A DNA stretch of 64,000 nt. It comes from Rhodospirillales bacterium (GTDB taxonomy: Bacteria > Pseudomonadota > Alphaproteobacteria > Rhodospirillales > 2-12-FULL-67-15). Shown here piece by piece: positions 2-49,341 of this stretch; the first letter of the stretch is position 1; the number at the start of each line of letters is the position of its first letter. Below the pieces are notes generated by a model. The model saw only the letters and a program-made list of their open reading frames with translations. It made no database searches and was not told the origin of the DNA. Location of the stretch: the NCBI GenBank assembly GCA_016872535.1, contig VGZQ01000004.1:2626-66625 (forward strand). Reading direction: 5' to 3'. The position numbers and the translations under genes were made by a program.

Positions 2-607
<606 letters not shown>

Positions 608-680: not shown

Positions 681-694
681 TTAACCCCGGTCAA
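681..694 (+). promoter_or_regulatory. FNR/Dnr/NnrR-like box (imperfect) upstream of nnrS
   Basis: TTAAC-CCCG-GTCAA is a 9/10 match to the palindrome TTGAC-N4-GTCAA that occurs perfectly at 8667. It is centred about 70 nt upstream of the in-frame ATG at 757. It overlaps the first possible nnrS start (694), so its role is uncertain. Confidence 0.35.
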
Positions 695-1953
695 TGTACG
701 CCGGCGGCGCGCGGCTCATGGTTGCGCGACACTTGTTCAGATGGCGACCGAAGTCGATGCGCGCGTTTCTCCACGTATTCCTGTCCCACGGTTTCCGCCC
801 GTTCTTCCTGTTTGCCGGCGCTTACGCGGTCATCGCCGCCGCGGCCTGGCTTGCGATCCTGCACCGGCTGTACACCGGCACGGCCGGTTCCTTTCCGCAC
901 GGCGCGATGCCGCCCCATTTCTGGCACGGCCACGAAATGCTGTTCGGCTACGTCGCTGCGGCCGTCGCCGGGTTCTTCCTGACTGCGGTTCCGAGCTGGA
1001 CCGGCCGCGCCCCGGTGCGCGGCGGAACGCTCGGCGCGCTCGCGCTCGCCTGGATCGCCGGACGGATTGCGTTGTGGGGCGCGGCGGCGCTGCCGCCGCT
1101 GCTGGTCGCGATCCTCGATCTCGCCTTCGTGCCGTTTCTCGCAGCCCTGGTGATCCGGGCGCTGGCGGGCGGCTGGTCGAGGCGCAACGCGATCTTTCTT
1201 CCCGTGTTCGCGGCGCTGTTTGCCGCCAATCTTCTCTATCACCTGGATGCCGCCGGGATCGCTCCCGGTTATGCCGGGCGCGGCCTCAACCTCGCCCTCG
1301 ACACCGTGCTGTTCCTGATCGCCGTGCTCGGCGGGCGGGTCGTTCCCGCCTTCACCACCAACGCGCTCCGGCGCGCGGGCGAGGAACGCCTGCCGGTCTC
1401 GCGCGCGCCGCTCGAAGCCGCCGCGCTGCTCGCCGTCGTCGCGCTCGCCGCGGTCGACTTTCTCGCGCCCGACGGACGCGCGGCCGGCGCCGTCGCCGCG
1501 ATCGCCGCCGTCCTGCACGCGGCTCGATTCGCGGGTTGGCGCGGCCACCGCACGCTCGCCGAGCCGATCCTGTGGATCATCCATCTCGGCTATCTTTGGC
1601 TGATCGTCGGCTTCGCCCTCAAGGCGATGGCGCTGCTCGGCGGGTGGCTGCCGCCGACCGCGGCGAGCCACGCGCTCACCATCGGCGCGATCGGCTGCAT
1701 GACGCTCGGCGTCATGTCGCGGGCGGCGCTCGGCCATACCGGACGCGAGCTGCGCGTGGCGCCGGCGATCGTCGCCGCCTATCTGTTGGTGACGGCGGCG
1801 GCGCTCGCGCGCGTCCTCGGGCCCGCGCTGCTGCCCGCGTACGCGCTCCAGGCGCTCGCCGTCACCGCGGTCCTGTGGATCGCCGGGTTCGGCCTGTTCA
1901 CTTATATATATGTCCCGATCCTGCTTCGGCCGCGCGCGCGGGCCGAAGGATAG
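694..1953 (+). CDS. nnrS: NnrS family membrane protein (NO-response regulon heme/copper protein)
   Basis: Polytopic membrane ORF with the N-terminal HGFRPFFL motif typical of NnrS, next to nirS and a Crp/Fnr regulator. Start is ambiguous: 694, 718 or 757. Start 757 fits the upstream box spacing best. Confidence 0.85.
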   Translation: MYAGGARLMVARHLFRWRPKSMRAFLHVFLSHGFRPFFLFAGAYAVIAAAAWLAILHRLYTGTAGSFPHGAMPPHFWHGHEMLFGYVAAAVAGFFLTAVPSWTGRAPVRGGTLGALALAWIAGRIALWGAAALPPLLVAILDLAFVPFLAALVIRALAGGWSRRNAIFLPVFAALFAANLLYHLDAAGIAPGYAGRGLNLALDTVLFLIAVLGGRVVPAFTTNALRRAGEERLPVSRAPLEAAALLAVVALAAVDFLAPDGRAAGAVAAIAAVLHAARFAGWRGHRTLAEPILWIIHLGYLWLIVGFALKAMALLGGWLPPTAASHALTIGAIGCMTLGVMSRAALGHTGRELRVAPAIVAAYLLVTAAALARVLGPALLPAYALQALAVTAVLWIAGFGLFTYIYVPILLRPRARAEG

Positions 1954-2737: not shown

Positions 2738-3139
2738 CTACACGCCGAGGACGCGGTGGAGCCTCGCGTCCTGCTCGCGGAAGTGGTCGACGAACCAAGC
2801 CTTGAGGCGGCCGCCGAACTCGGCGCGGAACGTCTCGTCGTCCTCGCTGCCCTCGTAGCTGTCCATCAGGTCGCGGATTTCGTCGAGCAGACGCTCGTGA
2901 TCGAACTTGTGCGCCGCGTAGCCGTCGTAGCGGCGCTCGCGCATGACCGATTCCTCCAGCGCGAAGTGGGCCGAGATGCGCGCGTACACCTCGCCGAGGA
3001 AGGCGACGATGTTTTCGCGCGAACCGTCCCCGGCCAAATCGGCATACAGGCTGTTGAGCAGATTGATCATTTCCTGGTGCTCGTGATCGAGCGCCGGAAT
3101 GCCGGTCTTGAAGTCGTCTCGCCATTCGATCAGGGTCAT
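2738..3139 (-). CDS. bacteriohemerythrin
   Basis: 133 aa with the canonical di-iron ligand motifs LDHEHQE, HFALEE, HKFDHERL and WFVDHFREQD. Sits 18 nt downstream of the preceding operon gene. Confidence 0.85.
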   Translation of the reverse strand: MTLIEWRDDFKTGIPALDHEHQEMINLLNSLYADLAGDGSRENIVAFLGEVYARISAHFALEESVMRERRYDGYAAHKFDHERLLDEIRDLMDSYEGSEDDETFRAEFGGRLKAWFVDHFREQDARLHRVLGV

Positions 3140-3157
3140 GATTCCGTTTCCTCATCC

Positions 3158-3661
3158 TCAACGGAACACGAAGCCGCCGGTCGCGGCACGGAAGTCGACC
3201 GCCAGGCTCTGGCGGGGCGCCAGCGTCGCCTCGGTCGCGCCATGATAATCGAATCCCTCGCCGCGCGGAGAATCCCTGAGCCGCGCCTCTATGCGGTGCG
3301 TGCCCGGCGCGACGACGAACCGGCGATGAACGTTGGATGGAAAATCCTTGGCGAAGCCCTTGGGCGGAAGCGATTCGCGGAACAGGATCTTGCCGTCCAC
3401 CTCAAGCTCGACCAGCAGCGCGACGCGCTCGCGCGGACACACCAGCTTGCGGCGCATGTTGGGGGCGAGCTTGGCCAGTTCGTCGGCCGCGCGCTCGCGG
3501 CATTCGCCCGCGGGCTTGCCGCCGTGGGTGAACGACAGCACGATCTGAGCTTGATCCGGCGGCGCGGGCGCGTAGGCCGGGCCGTTGGCAAACACGCCAA
3601 GTATCGCGGCGAAGATAGCGTAGGTGACGCCTTGTCCGACGAGCGCGAGGGGACGGATCAT
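3158..3661 (-). CDS. membrane-anchored hypothetical protein (operon member, unknown family)
   Basis: 167-aa ORF whose ATG overlaps the stop of the upstream fusion gene (ATGA at 3658-3661). N-terminal hydrophobic anchor TYAIFAAILGVFA, then a soluble domain with two Cys. No family recognised. Confidence 0.6.
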   Translation of the reverse strand: MIRPLALVGQGVTYAIFAAILGVFANGPAYAPAPPDQAQIVLSFTHGGKPAGECRERAADELAKLAPNMRRKLVCPRERVALLVELEVDGKILFRESLPPKGFAKDFPSNVHRRFVVAPGTHRIEARLRDSPRGEGFDYHGATEATLAPRQSLAVDFRAATGGFVFR

Positions 3662-5232
3662 GCGCGCTCTCCCGCGGCTTCGGCGACGCGGCGTTTATCG
3701 GCGGGCGGAAACGACGGCGCCGGCTTGAGCGCCGCGAGCTGCGCTGCGAACGCCGACAGCTCGGCGGCGATCGCGCCCTTGTCCGATGTCCAGATCCTCA
3801 CCAGACGATCGCGGGGGACGCGCGCGCGCAAGGCCGGATCGCGCGCGCCCTCGATCCGCTCCTCGGTCCAGCGCACGCCGAGGCGGGCGCGGCAATGGGC
3901 GTTGCGGCAGCCGGTCAGCACCACGCCGTCCGCCAGATCGCGACTCAGGATATAGTCCACGAACGGCGGCGGCAGCATGCCGGTGCACGGCAGACTGACG
4001 GCGGCGATGCCGGGGGCCGCGAAATTGGCGACCTTCGCGCCGTGGTCGCAACCGAAGACGAGGATGCGCGGGCGGGCGCGCAAGCCCCGGCTCGCGGCCT
4101 CGACCTTGTCACGCAGCGCGGCGGTGGTCAGATCCGGGATTTCGATCCCGGCCACCAATTCGCCCATGCGCCGGAACGGCATCGCCGTCGGGCACGCCCC
4201 GGCGCAGATGCCGCAGCCGACGCACAATCCGGGATCGACCACGGGTTCCTCGGGGAACGGCCGGTCATCGGTTCGGCGCCCCATGCGGATGGCGGCGAAT
4301 GGGCAGTCGGTGGCGCACCGCCGGCAGCCGTTGCAGCTTTCGAGGTTGACGACGGCCGCGGCGACCTTCTTTTCGGGCGGCACCCACGGCAACGCCATCA
4401 GCGCGAAACTGCCGCCAACCAGGACGGCCCATGTGAACAGCGGCGACGTCGCCTCGATCAGCGGGTAGACCCACAGGTAATACCAGTCGAGCTTGACCGG
4501 CGTCGGCACCTGGGCGAGGTCCGCTGGCCCCTGGCTCATCGCCGGCACGACCAGCGAAAGAACCAGCAGCATCGCCGCCGTCCCGATCGCGAGCCCGCGC
4601 GCCGGGTTCACCTTGGCGTAGTTCACCCGCTGCAGGTGGAACCACATGATGAACAGCAGCACCAGCGGCACGGCGACGTGCATGAAGATCATCAGGGTGA
4701 AGAACCGGTCGCTGAGCTGGGCCGGCGAGGCGAAATTGCGCGCGATCTGCTCGCCGAACAGCGGCAGCGCGTCCAACCATTCGCTGGTGGCGATCGCGAT
4801 GTATTGGGCGAGCCGGTCCCACACCATCCAATAGCCGGTGATCCCGGCGGCGAACAGGAACCAAAGGGTCGGAATGCCGGTCAGCCACGAATACCAGCGC
4901 GCGCCGCGATAGCGGTCAAAGGCGAATTCGCGCAGCATGTGCACGACCACCATCACGACCATCGCGTCGGAAGCGTAGCGGTGCAGGCTGCGCATCACGC
5001 CGGCGAGATACCACTGTTCGTGGGTCATGTACTCGACCGAGCGGTAGGCTTCGTGGACGCCGGTGTCGAAGAAGATGAAGAGATAGAGTCCGGTCCCGCA
5101 CACGATCCAGAAATAGTACCAACCGAGCGCGCCCAGGCACGAAAACGGATTCCAGCGCGGCCCGAAAATCCGATCGAAGAGATTTTCGGCGTGTTCGAAC
5201 AGGAAACGGAGCGGGGCGCGGACGGCGTTCAC
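3658..5232 (-). CDS. cytochrome b-like di-heme membrane domain fused to 2x[4Fe-4S] ferredoxin and MvhD/FlpD-like iron-sulfur domain
   Basis: GTG 5232 overlaps the senC stop (GTGA). Two H-x13-H pairs lie on hydrophobic helices (SLHRYASDAMVVMVVVH, FMHVAVPLVLLFIMWFH). Two ferredoxin motifs: CNGCRRCATDCP and CVGCGICAGACP. C-terminal ILVFGCDHGA...LPCTG...DGVVLTGCRNAHC resembles the hydrogenase/Hdr-associated delta subunit. The first 275 codons of track ORF 3658..6060 are rejected. Confidence 0.8.
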   Translation of the reverse strand: MNAVRAPLRFLFEHAENLFDRIFGPRWNPFSCLGALGWYYFWIVCGTGLYLFIFFDTGVHEAYRSVEYMTHEQWYLAGVMRSLHRYASDAMVVMVVVHMLREFAFDRYRGARWYSWLTGIPTLWFLFAAGITGYWMVWDRLAQYIAIATSEWLDALPLFGEQIARNFASPAQLSDRFFTLMIFMHVAVPLVLLFIMWFHLQRVNYAKVNPARGLAIGTAAMLLVLSLVVPAMSQGPADLAQVPTPVKLDWYYLWVYPLIEATSPLFTWAVLVGGSFALMALPWVPPEKKVAAAVVNLESCNGCRRCATDCPFAAIRMGRRTDDRPFPEEPVVDPGLCVGCGICAGACPTAMPFRRMGELVAGIEIPDLTTAALRDKVEAASRGLRARPRILVFGCDHGAKVANFAAPGIAAVSLPCTGMLPPPFVDYILSRDLADGVVLTGCRNAHCRARLGVRWTEERIEGARDPALRARVPRDRLVRIWTSDKGAIAAELSAFAAQLAALKPAPSFPPADKRRVAEAAGERA

Positions 5233-6089
5233 GCGGGAAACCGACGCCCGCCGGCTCGGCCCCCGCCGGGCGGCCGGAAATGCCTCAACCACGCGCGTGC
5301 CACCACGAAGCCGATAGCGAACAACGTCAACGCGCCGACGCCGACGATGATCGGTACCCGGTAATCGAACCGGTAGCGGCCGATCGACGGATCGTAGATG
5401 GTGCAGTAGAGCTTGACTCGTCCCACGATCCCTTCCCAACTCGCGAGCGACGAGAAGCGACCGAACACCAGATCCTTGAGCGGCTCGACCAGTTGCTGCG
5501 GCTCGAAATCGGCGCCGTAGACCTGGCGGTAGACCTTGCCCTCGGCGTCGAGCAGCGTCACCTGGGCGAGATGGTCGAACCCCTTGGCCGAGGCGAAGAA
5601 GATGAACCCGGTTTCCTCGGCGAGGCGGTCGACGGTCGCGGCGTCGGCGCTGAGAAAATCCCAGTTCGGCAGCCGGATGCCCTGGGCGCGGGCGAACGCC
5701 TTCATGCGTTCGGGCGTGTCGGCGCGGGCGTCGAATCCGATGGTTATCACCCGGAACGTGTCCCGGCCGATGGACTCCTGTGCCAGTTCGACGCCGTTGA
5801 TCAAACTGTGGGTGATCAGCGGGCAGACGTCGGCGCAACTGGTGTAAATCAGGTTCATGACCACCGGCTTGCCGCGCAGGTCGGCCAGCGCCACGGGCTT
5901 GCCGGAACGGTCGCGGAATTCGTGCGCGCCGACGGTGCGGCCGATCGCCGCTTGGCTGAATTTGAATGCGGCCATGTCGTCGAAGGGCGCGCCGGCGGCC
6001 CGCGCGTCCGCGGAAGCGAACAGGACGGCCGACAGAGCCGCCCCCGCGACGATCCCCCACCCGCTCACGGATCGAAACCGATACGCCAC
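5229..6089 (-). CDS. senC: SCO1/SenC family copper chaperone with extra C-terminal TM helix
   Basis: GTG start preceded by GAGAGGGG. Signal/anchor GWGIVAGAALSAVLFASA, thioredoxin-fold CADVCP (CxxxCP) and a downstream FDH His. C-terminal hydrophobic helix IIVGVGALTLFAIGFVVA. Only the last 286 codons of track ORF 5229..7556 are real. Confidence 0.8.
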   Translation of the reverse strand: MAYRFRSVSGWGIVAGAALSAVLFASADARAAGAPFDDMAAFKFSQAAIGRTVGAHEFRDRSGKPVALADLRGKPVVMNLIYTSCADVCPLITHSLINGVELAQESIGRDTFRVITIGFDARADTPERMKAFARAQGIRLPNWDFLSADAATVDRLAEETGFIFFASAKGFDHLAQVTLLDAEGKVYRQVYGADFEPQQLVEPLKDLVFGRFSSLASWEGIVGRVKLYCTIYDPSIGRYRFDYRVPIIVGVGALTLFAIGFVVARAWLRHFRPPGGGRAGGRRFPA

Positions 6090-6163
6090 CGACTTACCCC
6101 TCTCTCGTCCCGCCGGCCCGCCGCATCGCGGCGGGCCGGCCGAACGCTCGTCGAACGGCCGCG

Positions 6164-7858
6164 TCAGCGGAGCGGCCAAACCTCCGACAGGTACTTCCAG
6201 TTGATGAAATAGTAGAGCACGAAGGAGACGAAGAACACCGTTACCAGGATCGCCGTTCCCGGCAGCTTGAGCGTCGCCTCGCTGCCGTAGCTCGCGACCG
6301 CCGCGCCGCCGCCGGGATTGACGACCGGATTGCGCTTGATCGCGGCCTCGTCGCGGGGCCTGCCGAAGAACACCGAACCGACCACGACGACGACGAAGAT
6401 GATTCCGCCCACGGTCGCCAACACCGCCGACAGGCCGTTCAGCCCCATCATCAGAAACGCGGCCGGCGGATGCTCGAACTTGAGCGCCGCGTCGGCGAAG
6501 GTCATGTCCCAGTGCCGGCGCGAAACCCCGAGCGTACCCGCCCCCATCATGAAGAAGCTGATGCCCATGACGCCGAGCCCGAACAGGTAAGGCTGCCATT
6601 TGGCGAGCGTCGGGAACATGATCTCCTTGCGGAAGATCAGCGGCACCACCAGGTACGTGACCGCCATGAACGCGAGCGTCGTGCCCGCGACCACGGTGGC
6701 GTGGAAGTGCCCGGGCACGTAGAGGGTATTGTGCATGATCAGGTTGAGCTGCTCGGAGCCCAGCACCACGCCGGAAATGCCGCCCAGGAACCCGAACATC
6801 ACCACCGACATGGCCATGCCCGAGAACGCCGGGTTGCCCCAGGGTGCGCGGCGCAGCCAGTCGAACGCCCCTTGGGTGAAGCCGCGTCGGCGTTGCGCCG
6901 CCTCGACCGCGCCGGGAACGCTCATGCCGTGGATCATGGAGCCGAGCACCGCGAGATAGATGGCGTAGCTGGTGTTGAACACCTTCCAACTCGAACTGAT
7001 GCCCGGATCGACCAGCAGGTGGTGCGCGGACGCAAGCTGGAGGAAGGCGATGTAGAGCAGGAACGCGCCCCGGCTCACCTTCTCCGACAGCGGCTTCGCG
7101 CCCAGCACCATCGCCGCGATCGTGTACCACACCGCGACGTGCGCGGAGACGTTGATCTGCTGGGACGAATGGCCCATCCCCCACCAAATCACCTTGTACA
7201 TGAGCGAATCGAGGTGCGGGATGATGCCGATCGACCACAGGAACGTCGGCACCAGAATGATCGCGCCCGAGGCGATGGTGTAGACCGCGATCACCGCCGC
7301 CGTCACCGCGCCGAAGGTCACCAACGGGATCGAGCCTTCGTAAGTGCGCTCCTGCTTGGCGATCACCAGCGTGCCGAAGAAGACGAAGCAGGCGATCAGC
7401 GCCCCGACCGCGAACACGACCAGGCCGAGATAGAAGTGCGGCGCCGCCTTCATCGGCACGTAGGAGGTGAACATGACGCTCGATTCGCCCTGCAGGACGG
7501 CGACGTTGGCCATCAACGCGCCGACCAGCATCAGGACGAAGGCGAACCACGCCCATTTCGGCGCGGCGAGCCGCGAATTGAGCAGGATGGCCGACGCGAA
7601 ATAGAGGATCGCGATCTCGAAGAAGATGATCCAGAACAGCAGCACGTCGGCACCATGCGCGGTCAGCGCGAGGTAGAACAAGTCGGCGGGCAGGATGTGC
7701 ACCGCCGGCCAGCGCGTCAGCGCGACCAGCAGGCCGAACAGGCCGCCGATCGCCAGAAACACCACCGCGACCACGGCGTTGATCTTGATCAACGCTTCGG
7801 CGTGGCGGCAGACCTTAAGGCCGGTTTCGGGACAAACCCGATGCATGAAATTTGCCAT
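6164..7858 (-). CDS. heme-copper oxidase superfamily subunit I lacking the cross-link Tyr (sNOR/NorS-like putative nitric oxide reductase)
   Basis: 564 aa, polytopic. All six canonical His ligands are present (LTAHG; WWGMGH; SAHH; PGHFH). The H-x3-Y position reads GHSSQQ, so there is no Tyr. N-terminal HRVCPETGLKVCRH motif. Flanked by a CuA subunit II and SenC, within a denitrification cluster. Confidence 0.85.
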   Translation of the reverse strand: MANFMHRVCPETGLKVCRHAEALIKINAVVAVVFLAIGGLFGLLVALTRWPAVHILPADLFYLALTAHGADVLLFWIIFFEIAILYFASAILLNSRLAAPKWAWFAFVLMLVGALMANVAVLQGESSVMFTSYVPMKAAPHFYLGLVVFAVGALIACFVFFGTLVIAKQERTYEGSIPLVTFGAVTAAVIAVYTIASGAIILVPTFLWSIGIIPHLDSLMYKVIWWGMGHSSQQINVSAHVAVWYTIAAMVLGAKPLSEKVSRGAFLLYIAFLQLASAHHLLVDPGISSSWKVFNTSYAIYLAVLGSMIHGMSVPGAVEAAQRRRGFTQGAFDWLRRAPWGNPAFSGMAMSVVMFGFLGGISGVVLGSEQLNLIMHNTLYVPGHFHATVVAGTTLAFMAVTYLVVPLIFRKEIMFPTLAKWQPYLFGLGVMGISFFMMGAGTLGVSRRHWDMTFADAALKFEHPPAAFLMMGLNGLSAVLATVGGIIFVVVVVGSVFFGRPRDEAAIKRNPVVNPGGGAAVASYGSEATLKLPGTAILVTVFFVSFVLYYFINWKYLSEVWPLR

Positions 7859-7867
7859 GTTCGCCCC

Positions 7868-8413
7868 CTATTTCCGTTCAACCACGTGGATGCGGCCGAG
7901 CATGTTGTGATGGCCGATCCCGCAGAATTCGTTGCAGATGATGGCGAACTCGCCCGCCTGGGTCGGCGTCACGGTCAGCACCATCTCGTAATCGGGGTGG
8001 ACCTGGATGTTGATGTTGGTCGGCTGCAGCGAGAACCCGTGCAGCCAGTCCATCGAGGACATGTGCAGCCGGTAGCTTTGGCCCTTCTCAAGCTCGAGGA
8101 TCGGCCACCATTCCCACAGGCGCGCGATCAGGTAGGCGTCGCCGCCCGCGGGCGGCTTCACAACCGGGATCTTGGTATCGCCTTCCTCGCGCACTTTGTA
8201 TTTCGCCACGAAGGCCTCGGCCTTGGCCGCGAACGCCTCGGGTTTGATCTTGTAGGCCTCGTTCGACAGATTCTGTTGCCCGGCGATGTGCCAATAGACC
8301 ATCGTCAGAAACATGATGATGCCCCACAGGAAGGCGATCGTGATCCACACGATCTCCATCTTGTGCAGGGGCTCGTTCCACCACAGTTTGTTTTCCGGAG
8401 GTGTGAGTGCCAT
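7868..8413 (-). CDS. heme-copper oxidase subunit II with CuA centre (NorY-like)
   Basis: 181 aa from ATG 8413. One N-terminal TM helix, then a cupredoxin domain with CuA ligands WLHGF...CNEFCGIGHHNM (CxExCGxxHxxM). 9-nt gap to subunit I. Confidence 0.8.
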   Translation of the reverse strand: MALTPPENKLWWNEPLHKMEIVWITIAFLWGIIMFLTMVYWHIAGQQNLSNEAYKIKPEAFAAKAEAFVAKYKVREEGDTKIPVVKPPAGGDAYLIARLWEWWPILELEKGQSYRLHMSSMDWLHGFSLQPTNINIQVHPDYEMVLTVTPTQAGEFAIICNEFCGIGHHNMLGRIHVVERK

Positions 8414-8426
8414 GATTCGCCCCCTG

Positions 8427-8603
8427 TCACTGCGCGATCGGGATCTGGGCGATCTCCATGATCCCCCAGATCGTGTAGAGGACCGCCGGCAGCGCGACCC
8501 CGATGAACAGAAGCGCGAACGGATTGTCGAGCAGAAGCTGCATCGGCGGCACTCGCTCGTCTTGCGGCGCGCCGGCGGCGCTTCCGGAACGGGTATCGGC
8601 CAT
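8427..8603 (-). CDS. small single-TM protein, first gene of the oxidase-like operon
   Basis: 58 aa from ATG 8603, with GGAG 8 nt upstream. One hydrophobic helix (FALLFIGVALPAVLYTIWGIM). Stop is 13 nt before the subunit II start. Sits about 70 nt downstream of the FNR-type box. No family recognised. Confidence 0.5.
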   Translation of the reverse strand: MADTRSGSAAGAPQDERVPPMQLLLDNPFALLFIGVALPAVLYTIWGIMEIAQIPIAQ

Positions 8604-8666
8604 CTTCGGTCTCCCCATGCGTTGCGAAGAACGCCCGAACGTCGCATGGGGAAGCGGACCGGTGCC

Positions 8667-8680
8667 TTGACTCACGTCAA
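8667..8680 (-). promoter_or_regulatory. perfect FNR/Dnr/NnrR-type box TTGAC-N4-GTCAA
   Basis: TTGACTCACGTCAA is a perfect palindrome of the Crp/Fnr half-site. Its centre is about 70 nt upstream of the first operon start (8603), consistent with a class II site at -41.5 plus a ~30-nt leader. A Crp/Fnr regulator with the E-SR helix is encoded 6 kb away. Confidence 0.6.
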
Positions 8681-11326: not shown

Positions 11327-11410
11327 CTATTTCACCGAACGCCAATCCAGCGCTCAGGCCTTGGCCCTTTCGCCGGGCAATTCGTGGCCCGCCCGCGCTC
11401 GGTCCCCCGC
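11327..11410. repeat. intergenic repeat copy A (full length)
   Basis: CTATTTCACCGAACGCCAATCC...GCCCTTTCGCCGGGCAATTCGTGGCCCGCCCGCGCTCGGTCCCC. About 75-80% identical to copy C at 14781, and its 3' half is about 88% identical to copy B at 12192. Confidence 0.5.
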
Positions 11411-11504
11411 ATGTCGCACCCGTTATCCGGCTGGCGTGGGCAAAGCACCTACTGGCAATCTTTGCCAACTACGCTATGCTGGCCGGATCGAAGGGAGATT
11501 TCCC

Positions 11505-11768
11505 ATGCCCACCAGAAACGTCAATCTGACCGACGACCAGGATGCTTTCGTCGAGAAGATGGTCAAGGCCGGCAAATACCAGAACGCCAGCGAAGCCGTG
11601 CGCGATGCCGTGCGCGGATTGCAGCAGCGCTGGAAAGAGGACGAACTGAAACTCGCGGCGCTGCGCAAACGGATCAAGGCGGGCGCCGAGGCCCTGGATC
11701 GCGGCGACTTCACCGAAGTGGACGACGCCGATCTCGACGCGGCCCTCGACAAGCTGGCCTCCAATTGA
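11505..11768 (+). CDS. parD: ParD-type antitoxin (RHH)
   Basis: 87 aa starting MPTRNVNLTDDQDAFVEKMVKAGKYQNASEAVRDAVR, the typical ParD/COG3609 N-terminus. RBS AAGGGAG. Followed 12 nt later by parE. Confidence 0.85.
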   Translation: MPTRNVNLTDDQDAFVEKMVKAGKYQNASEAVRDAVRGLQQRWKEDELKLAALRKRIKAGAEALDRGDFTEVDDADLDAALDKLASN

Positions 11769-11780
11769 GCGCGGCCATCG

Positions 11781-12128
11781 ATGGCGCGCTATCGGCTTTC
11801 CGGTCCGGCGAAGGCGGATATCTCCTCCATCCTGCGCGTGAGCGAGACGCGGCACGGCGGAGATGCACGCACCCGCTATCGCGGCTTGCTGGCGGCGGCG
11901 ATGCGCCGGATCGCGGCCGATCCGCAAGGGAGATCGACATCGGACCGAAGCGAACTCCTCGCCGGACTGCGCAGTCTGCATATCCGCCATAGCCGCAACG
12001 AGAGCCGCGAAGCCCCGGTCGGCGAGCCGGCACACGTGATCTTCTACCGCGTAGCCGGACCCGGTGTTGTCGAGATTGTGCGCATCCTGCACGACCGGAT
12101 GGAGCCGGGCTTGCATATCGGCTCGTAA
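11781..12128 (+). CDS. parE: ParE-type toxin
   Basis: 115 aa with RelE/ParE pattern (YRLSGPAKADI...HVIFYRV...VEIVRILHDRM). Confidence 0.85.
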   Translation: MARYRLSGPAKADISSILRVSETRHGGDARTRYRGLLAAAMRRIAADPQGRSTSDRSELLAGLRSLHIRHSRNESREAPVGEPAHVIFYRVAGPGVVEIVRILHDRMEPGLHIGS

Positions 12129-12314: not shown

Positions 12315-12581
12315 ATGCCCACCAGCGTCGCCCTCAGCCGCCATTTCGAAAACTTCATCCAGGAACAGGTGAAATCGGGGCGCTACAACAACGCCAGCGA
12401 GGTGGTGCGCGCCGGGCTGCGCCTGCTCGAGGATCAGCACGCCCTCGCCAAGATGCGGCACGAGGAAATGCGCGCGGCGATCGCGGCCGGCCTAGCGAGC
12501 GGCCCGGGGCGGCCGGCCGAAGCCGTGTTCGACCGATTGGAAACGAAGTATCGCAAGCTCGCCGGCAAACGCGCCGCATAA
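12315..12581 (+). CDS. parD: ParD-type antitoxin (second copy)
   Basis: 88 aa starting [39 protein letters not shown]. Its stop overlaps the parE-2 start (ATAATG). Confidence 0.85.
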
Positions 12582-12883
12582 TGCGCGTTACGCTGTCCCC
12601 GCTCGCCGAGCGAGACTTGGAAGCGATCGGCGACTATATCGCCAAGGATAACCCGTCCCGGGCGCTGAGCTTCATCGCCGAACTTCGCGCCCGGTGCGCG
12701 ACGATCGCCAAGGCGCCCAGGGCCTATCGCGCCCGCCGGGAACTGGGCGAGGGTCTGCGCTCGTGCGCCCACGGCGACTACGTGATTTTCTTCGCCGCCG
12801 CGAAAGGCCGGCTTACCATCGTCCGCGTGCTGCACGGCGCGATGGATGTGGCGGCGCGCTTTCCCGGAACGCCGGACGAATAA
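12581..12883 (+). CDS. parE: ParE-type toxin (second copy)
   Basis: 100 aa with SPLAERDLEAIGDYIAKDNP...YVIFF...LTIVRVLHGAMD. Confidence 0.85.
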   Translation: MRVTLSPLAERDLEAIGDYIAKDNPSRALSFIAELRARCATIAKAPRAYRARRELGEGLRSCAHGDYVIFFAAAKGRLTIVRVLHGAMDVAARFPGTPDE

Positions 12884-13105: not shown

Positions 13106-14212
13106 CTAAATAGGCCCACTCAGAGGGTGCGCGTCTTGTGTCGGTCGTGACCTGCGGAGGACGCCGCCTTTGTCGCGTTGAGACGGCTGTCGACCAACCC
13201 GATGAAGGTTGCCCCCCCAGGCGACGGCGGCGATGATCATGAACGCGAACGACAGCGGCATTAAGAATGGAGCGTCGAGAACCTTCGCCAAGTGGTAGGT
13301 GCACACCGAGAACATGCCGAGCGGGAAGACTCCTCCCCAATACAGCGGGTCATAGGCGAACGGGACGCCGCGAATGAGGTAGCGCCACACATCCAAGACG
13401 AACAGCATGGGAATCCACCAGATCCCAATGGCCCAGAAGAACAGGGTCAATCCCTTGATGAAGGGCGCCAAGCCGCCGACGATCGAAGACAAGGCCTCGT
13501 GCTCGAGCAAGGTGGCACCGGCAAGCGTCGAGATGGCCACGGCGCCCATATTGATCCAGTAGGGCGGCGTGAGGTCCTCCGGCAACATCCGCAGGAACGT
13601 GTAGCGGAGGAAGATCAGAGTCATCAGCCACAAATAGAGCGCGCCCCCACCGAGCCAGAGGGCCAGCGCGACGAACATCAGAAGTTGCCGAAATTCGCCG
13701 AAATTCCCCGAGGACAGCACCAGGACGGTCAGCGCGGATACCGATTGGGTGGCGACGACGCTGACAAGCCAAGCCCCGTTCAAACCGTCCTCCAGACTGG
13801 GCTTGTCGACCTTCACGATCAGGATCGCGAGCAACATGTACATGACCAGCAACCAAAGCGCGCCGGCGATGATCCAGAAGACGGTGGCCAGACCGCCGGC
13901 GTCCATTTGCAATACGAGTTGGCTACCGAACACGCCGGACGCCGCCACCGCCGTGAAGAATCCGACGCCGCGGCTGTGGCTGCGGATATCGGCCATGAAT
14001 GCCCTTGGGTAGCGGATGATGCGCAGGCAGGTCGCCGCCGCCAGAAGGATGAAAAATAAAGCGTTGAGCCAAAACAAGATCGCGGGCACCACCGGCACGC
14101 CGTGCAAGTCCACGGCAATGGAAACGATGCCGGTGGCCATGACCAGCGCGAAATATCCCGGATGCAGGGTTTCCAGGTCGTCGGGGCGGCCTCGTTGGAA
14201 ACGGAATCTCAT
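13106..14212 (-). CDS. TehA/TDT (tellurite-resistance / C4-dicarboxylate transporter, SLAC1-like) family membrane protein
   Basis: 368 aa with about 10 hydrophobic helices and the N-terminal HPGYFALVMATGIVS motif typical of the family. Confidence 0.8.
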   Translation of the reverse strand: MRFRFQRGRPDDLETLHPGYFALVMATGIVSIAVDLHGVPVVPAILFWLNALFFILLAAATCLRIIRYPRAFMADIRSHSRGVGFFTAVAASGVFGSQLVLQMDAGGLATVFWIIAGALWLLVMYMLLAILIVKVDKPSLEDGLNGAWLVSVVATQSVSALTVLVLSSGNFGEFRQLLMFVALALWLGGGALYLWLMTLIFLRYTFLRMLPEDLTPPYWINMGAVAISTLAGATLLEHEALSSIVGGLAPFIKGLTLFFWAIGIWWIPMLFVLDVWRYLIRGVPFAYDPLYWGGVFPLGMFSVCTYHLAKVLDAPFLMPLSFAFMIIAAVAWGGNLHRVGRQPSQRDKGGVLRRSRPTQDAHPLSGPI

Positions 14213-46165: not shown

Positions 46166-46780
46166 CTACTTCTTATCGCCGGTGAGCTGGTCGAGCTGGC
46201 GCTGCATGCGATCAAGCTTGGCGCGCAAGTCCTCGATCTCGGCCTCGCCGCCCTTCGTTTTTTCGCCCGCCGTGTCTTTGCCCGCCGGGGCGCGGCCCTG
46301 TTCGCCGGGGAAGAATGGCGTAAACATCTTCATGGCGTTTTCGAACAGCGCCATGTTCTGCTTGCCCATCTCCTCGAAACGGCCGAACGGCATCAGGCCG
46401 CTGAAGGCGTCGCGCATGTAGGTGCGCATCTGCTCCTGATTGCGGGCGAACGCCTGCATGCTGTAGTCGAGATAGCGCGGCACGATCGCCTGCAAGGAAT
46501 CGCCGTAGAAACTGATCAGGTGGCGCAGGAAGCTGAGCGGCAGCAGGTTCTGGCCCTTGGCCTCTTCCTCGACGATGATGTGGGTCAACACCTGACGGGT
46601 GATGTCCTCGCCGGTCTTGGCGTCGTAGACGGCGAAATCCGCTCCGTCCTTCACCATCTGGGCGAGATGATCGAGGGTGACATAGGTGCTGGTCGCGGTG
46701 TTGTAGAGCCGCCGGTTGGCGTATTTCTTGATCGTGATCGGCGGCACTTCTTTCGGCGGCGCAGCGGCGGGTTCGGCCAT
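46166..46780 (-). CDS. phaR: polyhydroxyalkanoate synthesis repressor PhaR
   Basis: Opens IKKYANRRLYNT and shows the PhaR pattern along its length. phaA and phaB lie nearby. Confidence 0.9.
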   Translation of the reverse strand: MAEPAAAPPKEVPPITIKKYANRRLYNTATSTYVTLDHLAQMVKDGADFAVYDAKTGEDITRQVLTHIIVEEEAKGQNLLPLSFLRHLISFYGDSLQAIVPRYLDYSMQAFARNQEQMRTYMRDAFSGLMPFGRFEEMGKQNMALFENAMKMFTPFFPGEQGRAPAGKDTAGEKTKGGEAEIEDLRAKLDRMQRQLDQLTGDKK

Positions 46781-46834
46781 CGGCGGGATCCTTGCCGTTT
46801 CAACGTTAGCCCTTACATAAAAGGGGCAAACATG

Positions 46835-46845
46835 CTGCAATGCAA
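46835..46845. promoter_or_regulatory. candidate PhaR operator
   Basis: CTGC-AAT-GCAA is a 7/8 match to the CTGC-N3-GCAG site I recall for Rhodobacter PhaR. It is flanked by AACAT...ATGTT, 55 nt upstream of phaR and 137 nt upstream of the divergent ORF. Confidence 0.3.
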
Positions 46846-46981
46846 GAAATGTTACGCCGCCGCAAACGGTCCGCTATAGTGGCCGACAACCGGGCGGACA
46901 AAGGCCGATATTCCGGCCGTCCCGTCCCGGATTAACCAAGATCTTCCTTCTCGCGCCCGCGCCCCGCCCGGAGCCCGCACC

Positions 46982-47338
46982 ATGGCCGATACGCCCAACC
47001 CCGAAGACCTCGCCAAGCTCTACCTCGAATTCTGGCAACGCCCGTTGGCCGGTCTCACGCGTGATCCCCAGGTCGCGGAAAGCATCGCTCGCATGTTCGA
47101 TCTGATGACCGCCGGCGCCGCCACTTTTGCCAAGGTGGTCGCCGGTCAGGCCGAGGGCCAGGGTGGCGCCCAAGGAACGTCCGTTCCGGCCGAGCCCGCG
47201 CGCGCCGATACCCGGCTTGATCAAATCGCAAGGCGGGTTGCCGAACTCGAACGCCGCGTCGCCCGGCTCGAGCCGCGCGCTTCGGCCCGCCGGTCCGGAA
47301 CCCCATCCCGACCCCGCCGTCCGCGCCGGCCCGGTTGA
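46982..47338 (+). CDS. hypothetical protein in the pha cluster (possible granule-associated protein)
   Basis: 118-aa ORF between phaR and phaA. Helical N-half ([16 protein letters not shown]...), coiled C-part and a basic tail. No family recognised. Confidence 0.45.
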
Positions 47339-47402
47339 CCCATATCAAGGATCTACAACCCGCGTCGCCGTCACATACGCGACCCTCAGGAGGACCTCCA
47401 CC

Positions 47403-48578
47403 ATGACCGACATCGTCATCGCCGGCGCCGTTCGTACCCCGATCGGTTCGTTCAACGGCGCACTCGCGTCCCTTTCCGCCCACGCGCTCGGCCAGATCGC
47501 CATCGTCGAGGCGATGAAACGCGCGAAGGTGGAGCCCGCCGACGTGGACGAAGTGGTCATGGGCCAGATCCTGATGGCGGGCGAAGGCCAGAACCCGGCC
47601 CGCCAGGCCGCCGTCGGCGCCGGCATTCCGGTCGAGAAAACGGCCTATGGCATCAATCAACTGTGCGGCTCGGGCTTGCGCTCGGTCGCGCTCGGCTTCC
47701 AGGCAATCAAGCTCGGCGATGCCCGTATCGTCGTCGCCGGCGGCCAGGAAAGCATGAGCCAGTCGCCGCACTGCACGCACCTGCGCAACGGCACCAAGAT
47801 GGGCGCGGCCGAACTGGTCGACACCATGATCAAGGATGGCCTGTGGGACGCCTTCAACGGCTACCACATGGGCAACACCGCCGAAAACGTCGCCAAGCGC
47901 TGGCAGATCACCCGCGAGGACCAGGATTCCTTCGCCGCCGCCTCGCAGCAAAAGGCGGAAGCCGCGCAGAAGGCCGGACGCTTCAAGGACGAAATCGTCC
48001 CCGTGGTCATCAAGGGCCGCAAGGGCGACACCGTAGTTACCGACGACGAATACCCGAAGCACGGCACCACCGTCGAATCGCTGGCCAAGCTCCGGCCCGC
48101 GTTCGACAAGGAAGGCACCGTGACGGCGGGCAACGCGTCCGGCATCAACGACGGCGCGGCGGCCGCGGTCCTGATGACCGCCGACGAAGCCAAGCGCCGC
48201 GGCATCAAGCCGCTCGCGCGCATCGTTTCCTGGGCGACGGCAGGCGTCGATCCCGCAATCATGGGCACCGGGCCGATTCCGGCGAGCCGCAAGGCGCTGG
48301 AAAAGGCGGGCTGGAAAGTCCAGGACCTCGATCTGATCGAGGCCAACGAGGCCTTCGCCGCCCAGGCGATTTCGGTCAACCGCGAGCTCGGGCTCGACAC
48401 CGGTAAGGTCAACGTCAACGGCGGCGCGATCGCGCTCGGCCACCCGATCGGCGCGTCGGGCGCGCGGGTGCTGGTGACGCTGCTGCACGAAATGAACCGT
48501 CGCGGCGCGAAAAAGGGCCTCGCCACGCTCTGCATCGGCGGCGGCATGGGCATCGCCATGTGCCTGCAGCGCGACTGA
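47403..48578 (+). CDS. phaA: acetyl-CoA acetyltransferase (beta-ketothiolase)
   Basis: 391 aa with [11 protein letters not shown] (active Cys), [15 protein letters not shown] and CIGGGMG. Confidence 0.9.
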
Positions 48579-48615
48579 TCGACAGACAAAAAACGCCAGG
48601 TACGGGGAGTGTAAT

Positions 48616-49341
<726 letters not shown>

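Follow-up and report, generated by a model that had tools for sequence, protein, structure and literature searches.

The seven-gene operon described here runs on the minus strand from position 8603 down to 2738 of a 64,000-nucleotide stretch of a Rhodospirillales metagenome-assembled genome (MAG; assembly GCA_016872535.1, contig VGZQ01000004.1, positions 2,626 to 66,625; this whole stretch is called the window below). As judged from the residues of its catalytic subunit, it quite probably encodes a nitric oxide (NO) reductase of the eNOR family, and hence a member of a family already described. The eNOR enzymes belong to the haem-copper superfamily and derive from B-type (ba3-like) oxidases in which the cross-linked Tyr has been replaced by Gln, and a Gln is what we find at that position. 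The general idea of the initial annotation of this DNA, that of an NO-reducing, B-family-derived haem-copper enzyme, fits these results, and novelty is confined to a conserved, uncharacterised accessory module formed by the last three genes. The genes, in the order in which they are read, are the following.

8427-8603, minus strand: peptide of 58 aa with a single transmembrane (TM) segment
7868-8413, minus strand: subunit II, 181 aa, one TM helix and a cupredoxin domain with an intact CuA site
6164-7858, minus strand: subunit I, 564 aa, of probable eNOR type (COX1 at E = 6e-63 in the profile search)
5229-6089, minus strand: SCO1/SenC copper chaperone, CxxxC motif (CADVCP) and a C-terminal TM extension
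3658-5232, minus strand: cytochrome b/Fe-S fusion, 524 aa (Cytochrome_B, Fer4 and FlpD profiles)
3158-3661, minus strand: anchored protein, 167 aa, N-terminal TM anchor and β-sandwich
2738-3139, minus strand: bacteriohemerythrin, 133 aa (hemerythrin profile; NF033749 above its cut-off)

Subunit I and its active site

The listing of open reading frames (ORFs) and a reading of the sequence both returned the co-oriented, tightly packed arrangement that had been described initially, with a GTGA overlap at 5229-5232 between the SCO1 and fusion genes and an ATGA overlap at 3658-3661 between the fusion and 167-aa genes; as for the remaining gaps, previously given as 9-75 nt, the packing holds and the distances we read are 13, 9, 74 and 18 nt. 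The SCO1/SenC gene has a GTG start with the Shine-Dalgarno sequence GAGAGAGGGG ahead of it, and its product was assigned to the SCO1-SenC family at E = 1.2e-13 in Pfam/NCBIfam profile searches, which also backed the identities proposed for the cytochrome b-FeS fusion and the hemerythrin. The best solved match of subunit II is the CuA domain of ba3 oxidase (E ~5e-15), and its CuA ligands are all present (H125, C160, C164, H168 and M171), as had been claimed. Based on its position and size, the 58-aa peptide most likely corresponds to subunit IIa of ba3; small peptides occupy the equivalent site in Thermus, in Thermomicrobium roseum, and at the locus of a more distant relative (P0121, locus L090) that is discussed below.

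The closest solved structure to subunit I is the ba3 oxidase of Thermus thermophilus (E ~1e-43), and the active-site residues were read from the alignment to ba3 and from a 36-sequence MAFFT alignment. All six haem and CuB His ligands are retained in both (H68, H230, H279, H280, H384 and H386), in agreement with the initial annotation, and the GHSSQQ stretch aligns with GHPIVY of ba3, with Gln234 (codon at 7157-7159) at the position of the cross-linked Tyr237, four residues after the His in helix VI. Because the alignments put Gln at this site, the catalytic Tyr is truly absent from subunit I, as first proposed from the same motif. Like ba3 (PDB 1EHK, 1XME), the operon has a three-gene core made up of a small peptide and subunits II and I, and the enzyme retains the ligands to haem and copper as well as two K-path residues, Y248 and S309; the replacements at Y237, V236, W239, Y244 and T312 set the two enzymes apart, and NO rather than O2 would be the expected substrate. 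The residues compared are listed here, ba3 first.

V236: Q233 in subunit I
Y237: Q234 in subunit I
W239: N236 in subunit I
Y244: Val in subunit I
Y248: Y245 in subunit I (kept)
S309: S307 in subunit I (kept)
T312: H310 in subunit I
T315: S313 in subunit I

The K-channel-like residues Y245, S307 and S313 are thus kept, and H310 replaces T312. The GH..QQ.N motif was seen in all 120 of the nearest cluster representatives and in every one of the 71 loci that could be read in the correct frame, out of 80 genome loci, while GS[ML]IH around the serine equivalent to S309 was found in 109 of the 120 relatives. The H-x3-Y cross-link pair of B-family (ba3) O2 reductases is not found in subunit I, which has Gln at the Tyr site, and neither is the signature of cNOR and qNOR, as the residue at His+4 is Gln and not Glu and subunit II is of the CuA type.

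A substitute for the missing Tyr had been suggested in the LLYIAF stretch. This residue, Y269, aligns with F272 of ba3, and we rejected it as an alternative cross-link Tyr, given that it is also conserved in sister sequences which retain the canonical Tyr, namely four proteins with a GHxxQY motif (P0130, P0132, P0136 and P0145, the named members of which are archaeal); Y269 is in fact a feature of the lineage and not a replacement, because the Tyr-retaining sisters share it. Its depth also argues against such a role, since it lies in helix VII, 10 residues or about three helical turns before the His pair, at what is presumably the level of the K-channel and not that of CuB, judging from the helix geometry of ba3. 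In addition to this Tyr (Y272 in ba3 numbering), the sisters share Q236, N239, S309 and H312 with the window enzyme; they differ from it in keeping the catalytic Tyr and are 36-44% identical to it. They probably correspond to the 'K' family of O2 reductases of preprint 10.1101/592808.

Family membership of the enzyme

The residue at the Tyr site is informative with regard to family. According to a table adapted from Hemp & Gennis (PMC8756737, Table A4), this residue is Asn in sNOR and in CuANOR/bNOR, Gln in eNOR, Glu in cNOR and qNOR, and Asp in gNOR, and the Tyr-site Gln was used to define the eNOR ingroup sequences in the same work (PMC8756737, section 2.7.1). A serine of the S309 type is reported in the B1 subfamily, eNOR and bNOR and is missing in sNOR (PMC11214002), the channel of which has a conserved Glu elsewhere and the active site of which is the same as that of bNOR (PMC11214002); K-channel-like residues resembling those of the B family are a further criterion for eNOR (PMC11214002, section 8). 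With the Gln present and the S309-type serine kept, subunit I therefore has these eNOR features and departs from sNOR in two. The sNOR family to which the operon had initially been ascribed does not stand up to these comparisons, as the Tyr-site residue is Gln and not Asn, S307 is kept, and the protein groups with Gln-bearing enzymes. The likeness to eNOR as known from Rhodothermus marinus DSM 4252 and Magnetospirillum magnetotacticum (Murali et al. 2024, PMC11214002) comprises B-family derivation, a CuA subunit II, Gln at the Tyr position, three His at the B-metal site, a K-type channel serine, and a tie to nirS and other denitrification genes. Haem O/A synthase genes are found in many operons of the family.

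When representatives of 50%-identity clusters were searched for Gln-bearing full-length relatives, only two others were found, P0121 (52% identical) and a Natrarchaeobius protein (41%). A search of plasmids returned, after a Defluviimonas orthologue, proteins of T. thermophilus and T. roseum as next matches, both 46% identical and with GHGAQQ at the site. In the Thermus homologue a Lys replaces the second low-spin-haem His (GHFKG); a His to Lys variant at the low-spin haem has been reported in some eNORs (PMC11214002), and the published alignment of eNORs contains a Thermus sequence (PMC8756737, section 2.4). The other plasmid tblastn matches that were checked, in Variovorax, Methylobacterium, Caballeronia and Cupriavidus as well as in Deinococcus, Geobacillus, Brevibacillus and Haloarcula, carry H-x3-Y and were therefore set aside as ordinary B-type oxidases.

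A neighbour-joining tree, calculated with the Gln-bearing proteins, the GHxxQY sequences and ba3-type enzymes and hence probing the grouping with Gln-bearing proteins only, placed the window enzyme and its type in a clade with P0121, the Thermus plasmid protein, T. roseum and Natrarchaeobius (bootstrap 99/100). The four GHxxQY proteins form a basal grade outside the Gln clade (86/100 for the joint clade), and ba3-type enzymes branch separately from this joint clade. The position of the Gln clade beside the GHxxQY sequences fits the clustering of eNOR with the O2-reducing 'K' family reported in preprint 10.1101/592808. Membership of the eNOR clade is indirect, drawn from the residue diagnostics and from the grouping with Gln-bearing proteins. 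Nitrosomonas-type sequences were found neither among the nearest relatives listed nor among the ten 50%-cluster representatives that were given names; the latter, ten of twenty full-length representatives looked up, carry MAG or archaeal names only. As a separate observation, in four distant relatives (P0182, P0197, P0216 and P0250) a Tyr replaces one CuB His (H282 of ba3) and the haem a3 His (H384), a pattern matching the 'J family' mentioned in preprint 10.1101/592808.

Conservation, regulation and genomic setting

One scan of species-representative genomes yielded at least 560 relatives, from which 80 loci with 67-97% identity were kept, belonging to Rhodospirillales, Hyphomicrobiales including Bradyrhizobium, Rhodobacteraceae, Woeseiaceae, and other Gammaproteobacteria. 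The seven-gene order recurs, with few exceptions, in these roughly 80 loci, mostly of Alpha- and Gammaproteobacteria. The presence of each gene by tblastn was as follows.

58-aa peptide: 76/80
Subunit II: 79/80
Subunit I: 80/80
SCO: 75/80
Cytochrome b fusion: 74/80
167-aa protein: 69/80
Hemerythrin: 65/80

Most shortfalls go together with a contig that stops short of the gene, and in all 76 loci with the peptide its gene lies directly upstream of that for subunit II. The number of genes had been singled out earlier as larger than that of a four-gene cluster; because the same layout is seen across loci, however, seven genes are the norm of this clade and not an expansion. Most loci also have a 294-aa haem O synthase gene (cyoE/ctaB) between those for subunit I and SCO (most of L003-L080, for instance L004 9702-10586, and likewise L082 10724-11605), unlike the window operon and its closest relatives, L001 and L002, in which this gene is missing from that place. 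In T. roseum the gene for subunit I is followed by one of 600 aa (L083 9817-11619) that bears the annotation haem O synthase and is probably a ctaA-ctaB fusion. The eNOR enzymes have haem a-type cofactors, and ctaA or ctaB genes are found in many of their operons, which the haem O synthase in the operons of relatives fits.

Upstream of the operon lies an exact copy of the FNR/Dnr/NnrR-type box, the first of several regulatory and denitrification features of this part of the window.

8667-8680: palindromic box TTGACTCACGTCAA of FNR/Dnr/NnrR type, exact TTGA-N6-TCAA
1955-2689, minus strand: CRP/FNR-family regulator, downstream of the hemerythrin gene and on the same strand as the operon
694-1953, plus strand: nnrS (NnrS profile, E = 4e-109)
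681-694: near-consensus FNR-type box TTAACCCCGGTCAA, between the end of nirS (607) and nnrS
17-607, plus strand: C-terminal part of nirS, cytochrome cd1 nitrite reductase (Cytochrom_D1 profile positions 198-368)

The box at 8667-8680, which had been pointed out before, is centred about 70 nt upstream of the first ATG, and TTGA-N6-TCAA occurs four times in the window against an expectation of 0.41. Among 74 related loci, an equivalent box precedes the operon in 45 if the match must be exact and in 59 if one mismatch is allowed, with TTGAC-N4-GTCAA as consensus; a stretch of about 380 nt would contain an exact match of 8 bases by chance with a probability below 1%. The box at 681-694 lies about 70 nt before the likely start of nnrS, and because this spacing equals that ahead of the operon, nnrS probably belongs to the same regulon. 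The variant TTAACCCCGGTCAA also precedes the operon in several Bradyrhizobium loci. A perfect palindrome with the FNR-box pattern, TTGATCTTGATCAA, is found at 7779-7792 inside the coding sequence of subunit I near its 5' end, and another FNR-type box, TTGACCCATATCAA (47335-47348), precedes the start of the thiolase domain of ORF 47127-48578 by about 75 nt, in a polyhydroxybutyrate (PHB) gene set (46166-49341) that continues with a short-chain dehydrogenase/reductase (SDR) gene resembling acetoacetyl-CoA reductase (48616-49341) and has a PhaR-like regulator (46166-46840) on the other strand. Scans for promoters and terminators gave nothing usable in the GC-rich DNA of the window.

The CRP/FNR-family regulator next to the operon is without the N-terminal Cys cluster and has the E-x2-SR recognition motif (ESLSR at 199), and is for these reasons probably of the Dnr/NnrR type rather than an FNR-type sensor, judging by these motifs. 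Its gene directly follows the hemerythrin gene in seven loci as well (L001, L002, L004, L006, L032, L033 and L035), and in L057, which has no hemerythrin match, it directly follows the 167-aa gene; it may possibly be co-transcribed with the operon. The setting in denitrification proposed initially is confirmed, with nirS, nnrS, a probable Dnr/NnrR-like regulator and the FNR-type box, and so is the statement that norCB and qnor are missing from the window, in which no second haem-copper or norB-like gene was found. The nirS gene is cut short by the left end of the window, and the stretch from 9 to 64 kb holds housekeeping genes. A SLAC1/TehA-type anion channel gene (13106-14212) lies 4.5 kb from the operon, and two small gene pairs (11361-12128 and 12315-12883), judged by eye, are candidate antitoxin/toxin modules resembling ParD/ParE or RelE.

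Gln-bearing relatives elsewhere adjoin nirS too. The gene of P0121 is next to nirS and napAD and is followed by a SCO gene, a cytochrome b-Fer4-FlpD fusion, and a UbiA-family gene, and the Thermus gene (T. thermophilus TTHNAR1 plasmid 4, L081 9001-10686) adjoins nirS, a multicopper oxidase, an Rrf2 regulator and a DUF542 protein. At the P0121 locus we also noted a gene for a 497-aa, weakly COX1-like protein (L090 6844-8337) directly upstream of the genes for a 36-aa peptide, subunit II and subunit I, and divergent from nirS and napAD.

Function, accessory genes and significance

For the eNOR of R. marinus, reduction of NO at a rate of 0.68 per second (25 °C) and no reduction of O2 have been reported (PMC11214002, section 6), and the 'cytochrome a1-like' haemoprotein of M. 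magnetotacticum has been assigned to the same family (PMC11214002, section 6). By analogy with R. marinus eNOR, the function of the window enzyme would most likely be the reduction of NO to nitrous oxide (N2O). The M. magnetotacticum enzyme reportedly had no cytochrome c oxidase activity in the original work. The earlier remark that the activity of such a cluster is only inferred was made of sNOR and is inapplicable to eNOR, given the activity measured in R. marinus (PMC11214002).

In the sequence of events that we envisage, low O2 or NO would cause a CRP/FNR regulator of the Dnr/NnrR type to bind the TTGAC-N4-GTCAA box and turn the operon on alongside nirS and nnrS, and SCO1 would load copper. 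Electrons from a periplasmic donor would enter through the CuA site of subunit II and pass by way of the low-spin haem to the binuclear site of subunit I, where two NO would be converted to N2O, while the small peptide would act as a third subunit similar to subunit IIa. Protons would probably be taken up through a modified K-type channel (Y245, S307, H310 and S313), and the reaction may be electrogenic.

Several points weigh against an eNOR working as an NO reductase here. The role in NO reduction in the proteobacterial clade rests on analogy to the R. marinus enzyme, to which the operon is likened by published description and residue diagnostics, and the tree, as said above, probes the grouping with Gln-bearing proteins only. 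The haem O/A synthase genes of most relatives are missing from the window, the clusters of Thermus and T. roseum contain nothing equivalent to the accessory cytochrome b fusion, and nirS is found within 8 kb in only 10 of the 80 loci, which makes its linkage frequent but not obligatory. Moreover, an O2-related role would be just as compatible with the hemerythrin encoded in the operon and with the FNR-type promoter.

An O2-related role is in fact the core of the main rival explanation, according to which the operon encodes a high-affinity terminal oxidase for microaerobic respiration with the hemerythrin capturing or delivering O2. B-family descent, an intact CuA site, the copper chaperone and the K-type channel residues are all compatible with such an enzyme, as are control of the FNR type, typical of microaerobic oxidases, and an O2-binding hemerythrin; a microaerobic role has also been argued for sNOR in Nitrosomonas europaea (preprint 10.1101/765727). 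The cross-linked Tyr held necessary for four-electron reduction of O2 is however absent in every member of the family, and the closest sequences that retain it form a separate grade. The behaviour of the two enzymes mentioned above, R. marinus eNOR with no O2 reduction (PMC11214002) and the M. magnetotacticum protein, also speaks against an oxidase, and we consider this explanation unlikely.

We deem it still less probable that the catalytic core carries out another kind of chemistry, for example dismutation of NO, reduction of N2O, or sensing of NO or O2, with the fusion and the hemerythrin as the functionally dominant parts, for instance of a quinol-driven cytoplasmic scavenger of NO or O2. 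The trio of accessory genes, to which no function has been assigned, is conserved to the same degree as the core, and the superfamily has repeatedly evolved new chemistries (PMC11214002), but nothing speaks positively for a different chemistry, the active site carries the signature of a family whose NO reductase activity has been measured, and the Thermus and T. roseum relatives are without the trio. Least probable is an sNOR of the norSY-senC-orf1 type, the CuA-containing putative NO reductase of ammonia oxidisers, which the operon recalls in its order of subunit II, subunit I, SCO and an orf (PMC4940428), in its CuA subunit, its loss of Tyr, SCO1/SenC beside subunit I and the role proposed, and from which it is set apart, by published descriptions, through Gln in place of Asn (PMC8756737, Table A4), a serine that sNOR is said to lack (PMC11214002), the grouping with eNOR-like Thermus and haloarchaeal proteins, and the lack of Nitrosomonas-type sequences among the relatives named above.

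Unlike eNOR as known, the proteobacterial clade adds to the eNOR core the SCO1 gene, the cytochrome b-[4Fe-4S]2-MvhD fusion, the 167-aa anchored protein and the hemerythrin, the last three of which make up the conserved accessory module, with no function assigned; the window copy differs in turn from most members of the clade in having no haem O synthase gene. The fusion combines a di-haem cytochrome b that resembles that of bc1 complexes and has six TM helices with two [4Fe-4S] motifs and a domain similar to MvhD/FlpD. The haem ligands H84/H98 and H185/H199 are invariant, as are the eight Cys of the two [4Fe-4S] motifs, DWY stands in the place of PEWY, and the MvhD-like domain has four conserved Cys (C395 and C416 invariant, C442 and C447 nearly so). 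A structural model of the fusion (predicted local distance difference test, pLDDT, 76.6) can be matched along some 290 residues to the cytochrome b of bc1 complexes, and the C-terminal domain has a fold match to MvhD of the Hdr-Mvh complex (5odc_D). The Fe-S part is predicted to face the cytoplasm because there are six TM helices. Compared with the cytochrome b of bc1 and b6f complexes, then, the fold and the four His haem ligands are alike, whereas the fusion has six instead of eight helices, DWY for PEWY, and a cytoplasmic 2x[4Fe-4S] ferredoxin with an MvhD-like domain attached, and neither a Rieske protein nor a cytochrome c1 partner is encoded with it.

The 167-aa protein has two invariant Cys (C54 and C75) and a structural model with pLDDT 90.6, for which no PDB fold match was found at E <= 0.001; Pfam/NCBIfam profile searches gave no family, and every named one of its 1044 relatives is called 'hypothetical'. 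The hemerythrin has the complete di-iron ligand set (H19 or H21, H58, E62, H77, H81, H119 and D124). None of the proteobacterial accessory genes was found beside the Thermus gene, and our literature search returned no paper linking the cytochrome b fusion, the 167-aa protein or the hemerythrin to eNOR; a literature search for the mca/hosA genes of Magnetospirillum gave nothing relevant. We tentatively suggest, with considerable doubt, that the trio is an undescribed dedicated partner system of proteobacterial eNOR, either a Rieske-less quinol-linked wire or a device for O2 delivery. As a wire, it might provide a transmembrane electron path that supplies the enzyme without passing through the bc1 complex, or one that maintains a di-iron buffer of NO or O2 in the cytoplasm in its reduced state; as a delivery device, it might supply O2 for O2-dependent haem A synthesis under hypoxia. 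Our best guess would be a putative electron wire from the quinone pool to a cytoplasmic di-iron protein that buffers or detoxifies NO or O2.

The identification of this operon has consequences beyond the window. In annotations, enzymes of the eNOR type go under 'cytochrome c oxidase subunit I' or 'cbb3-type oxidase', and as a result organisms carrying nirS, such as this Rhodospirillales MAG, are scored as having no NO reductase and their potential to produce N2O is missed, in a clade that is present in at least 560 species-level genomes. The choice between the eNOR and sNOR labels decides which biochemical precedent applies, that of eNOR being a measured NO reductase activity, and the family assignment bears on whether NO reduction may conserve energy in this organism. 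Finally, the conserved accessory genes raise a testable question on how electrons are supplied to the enzyme or how it is protected.

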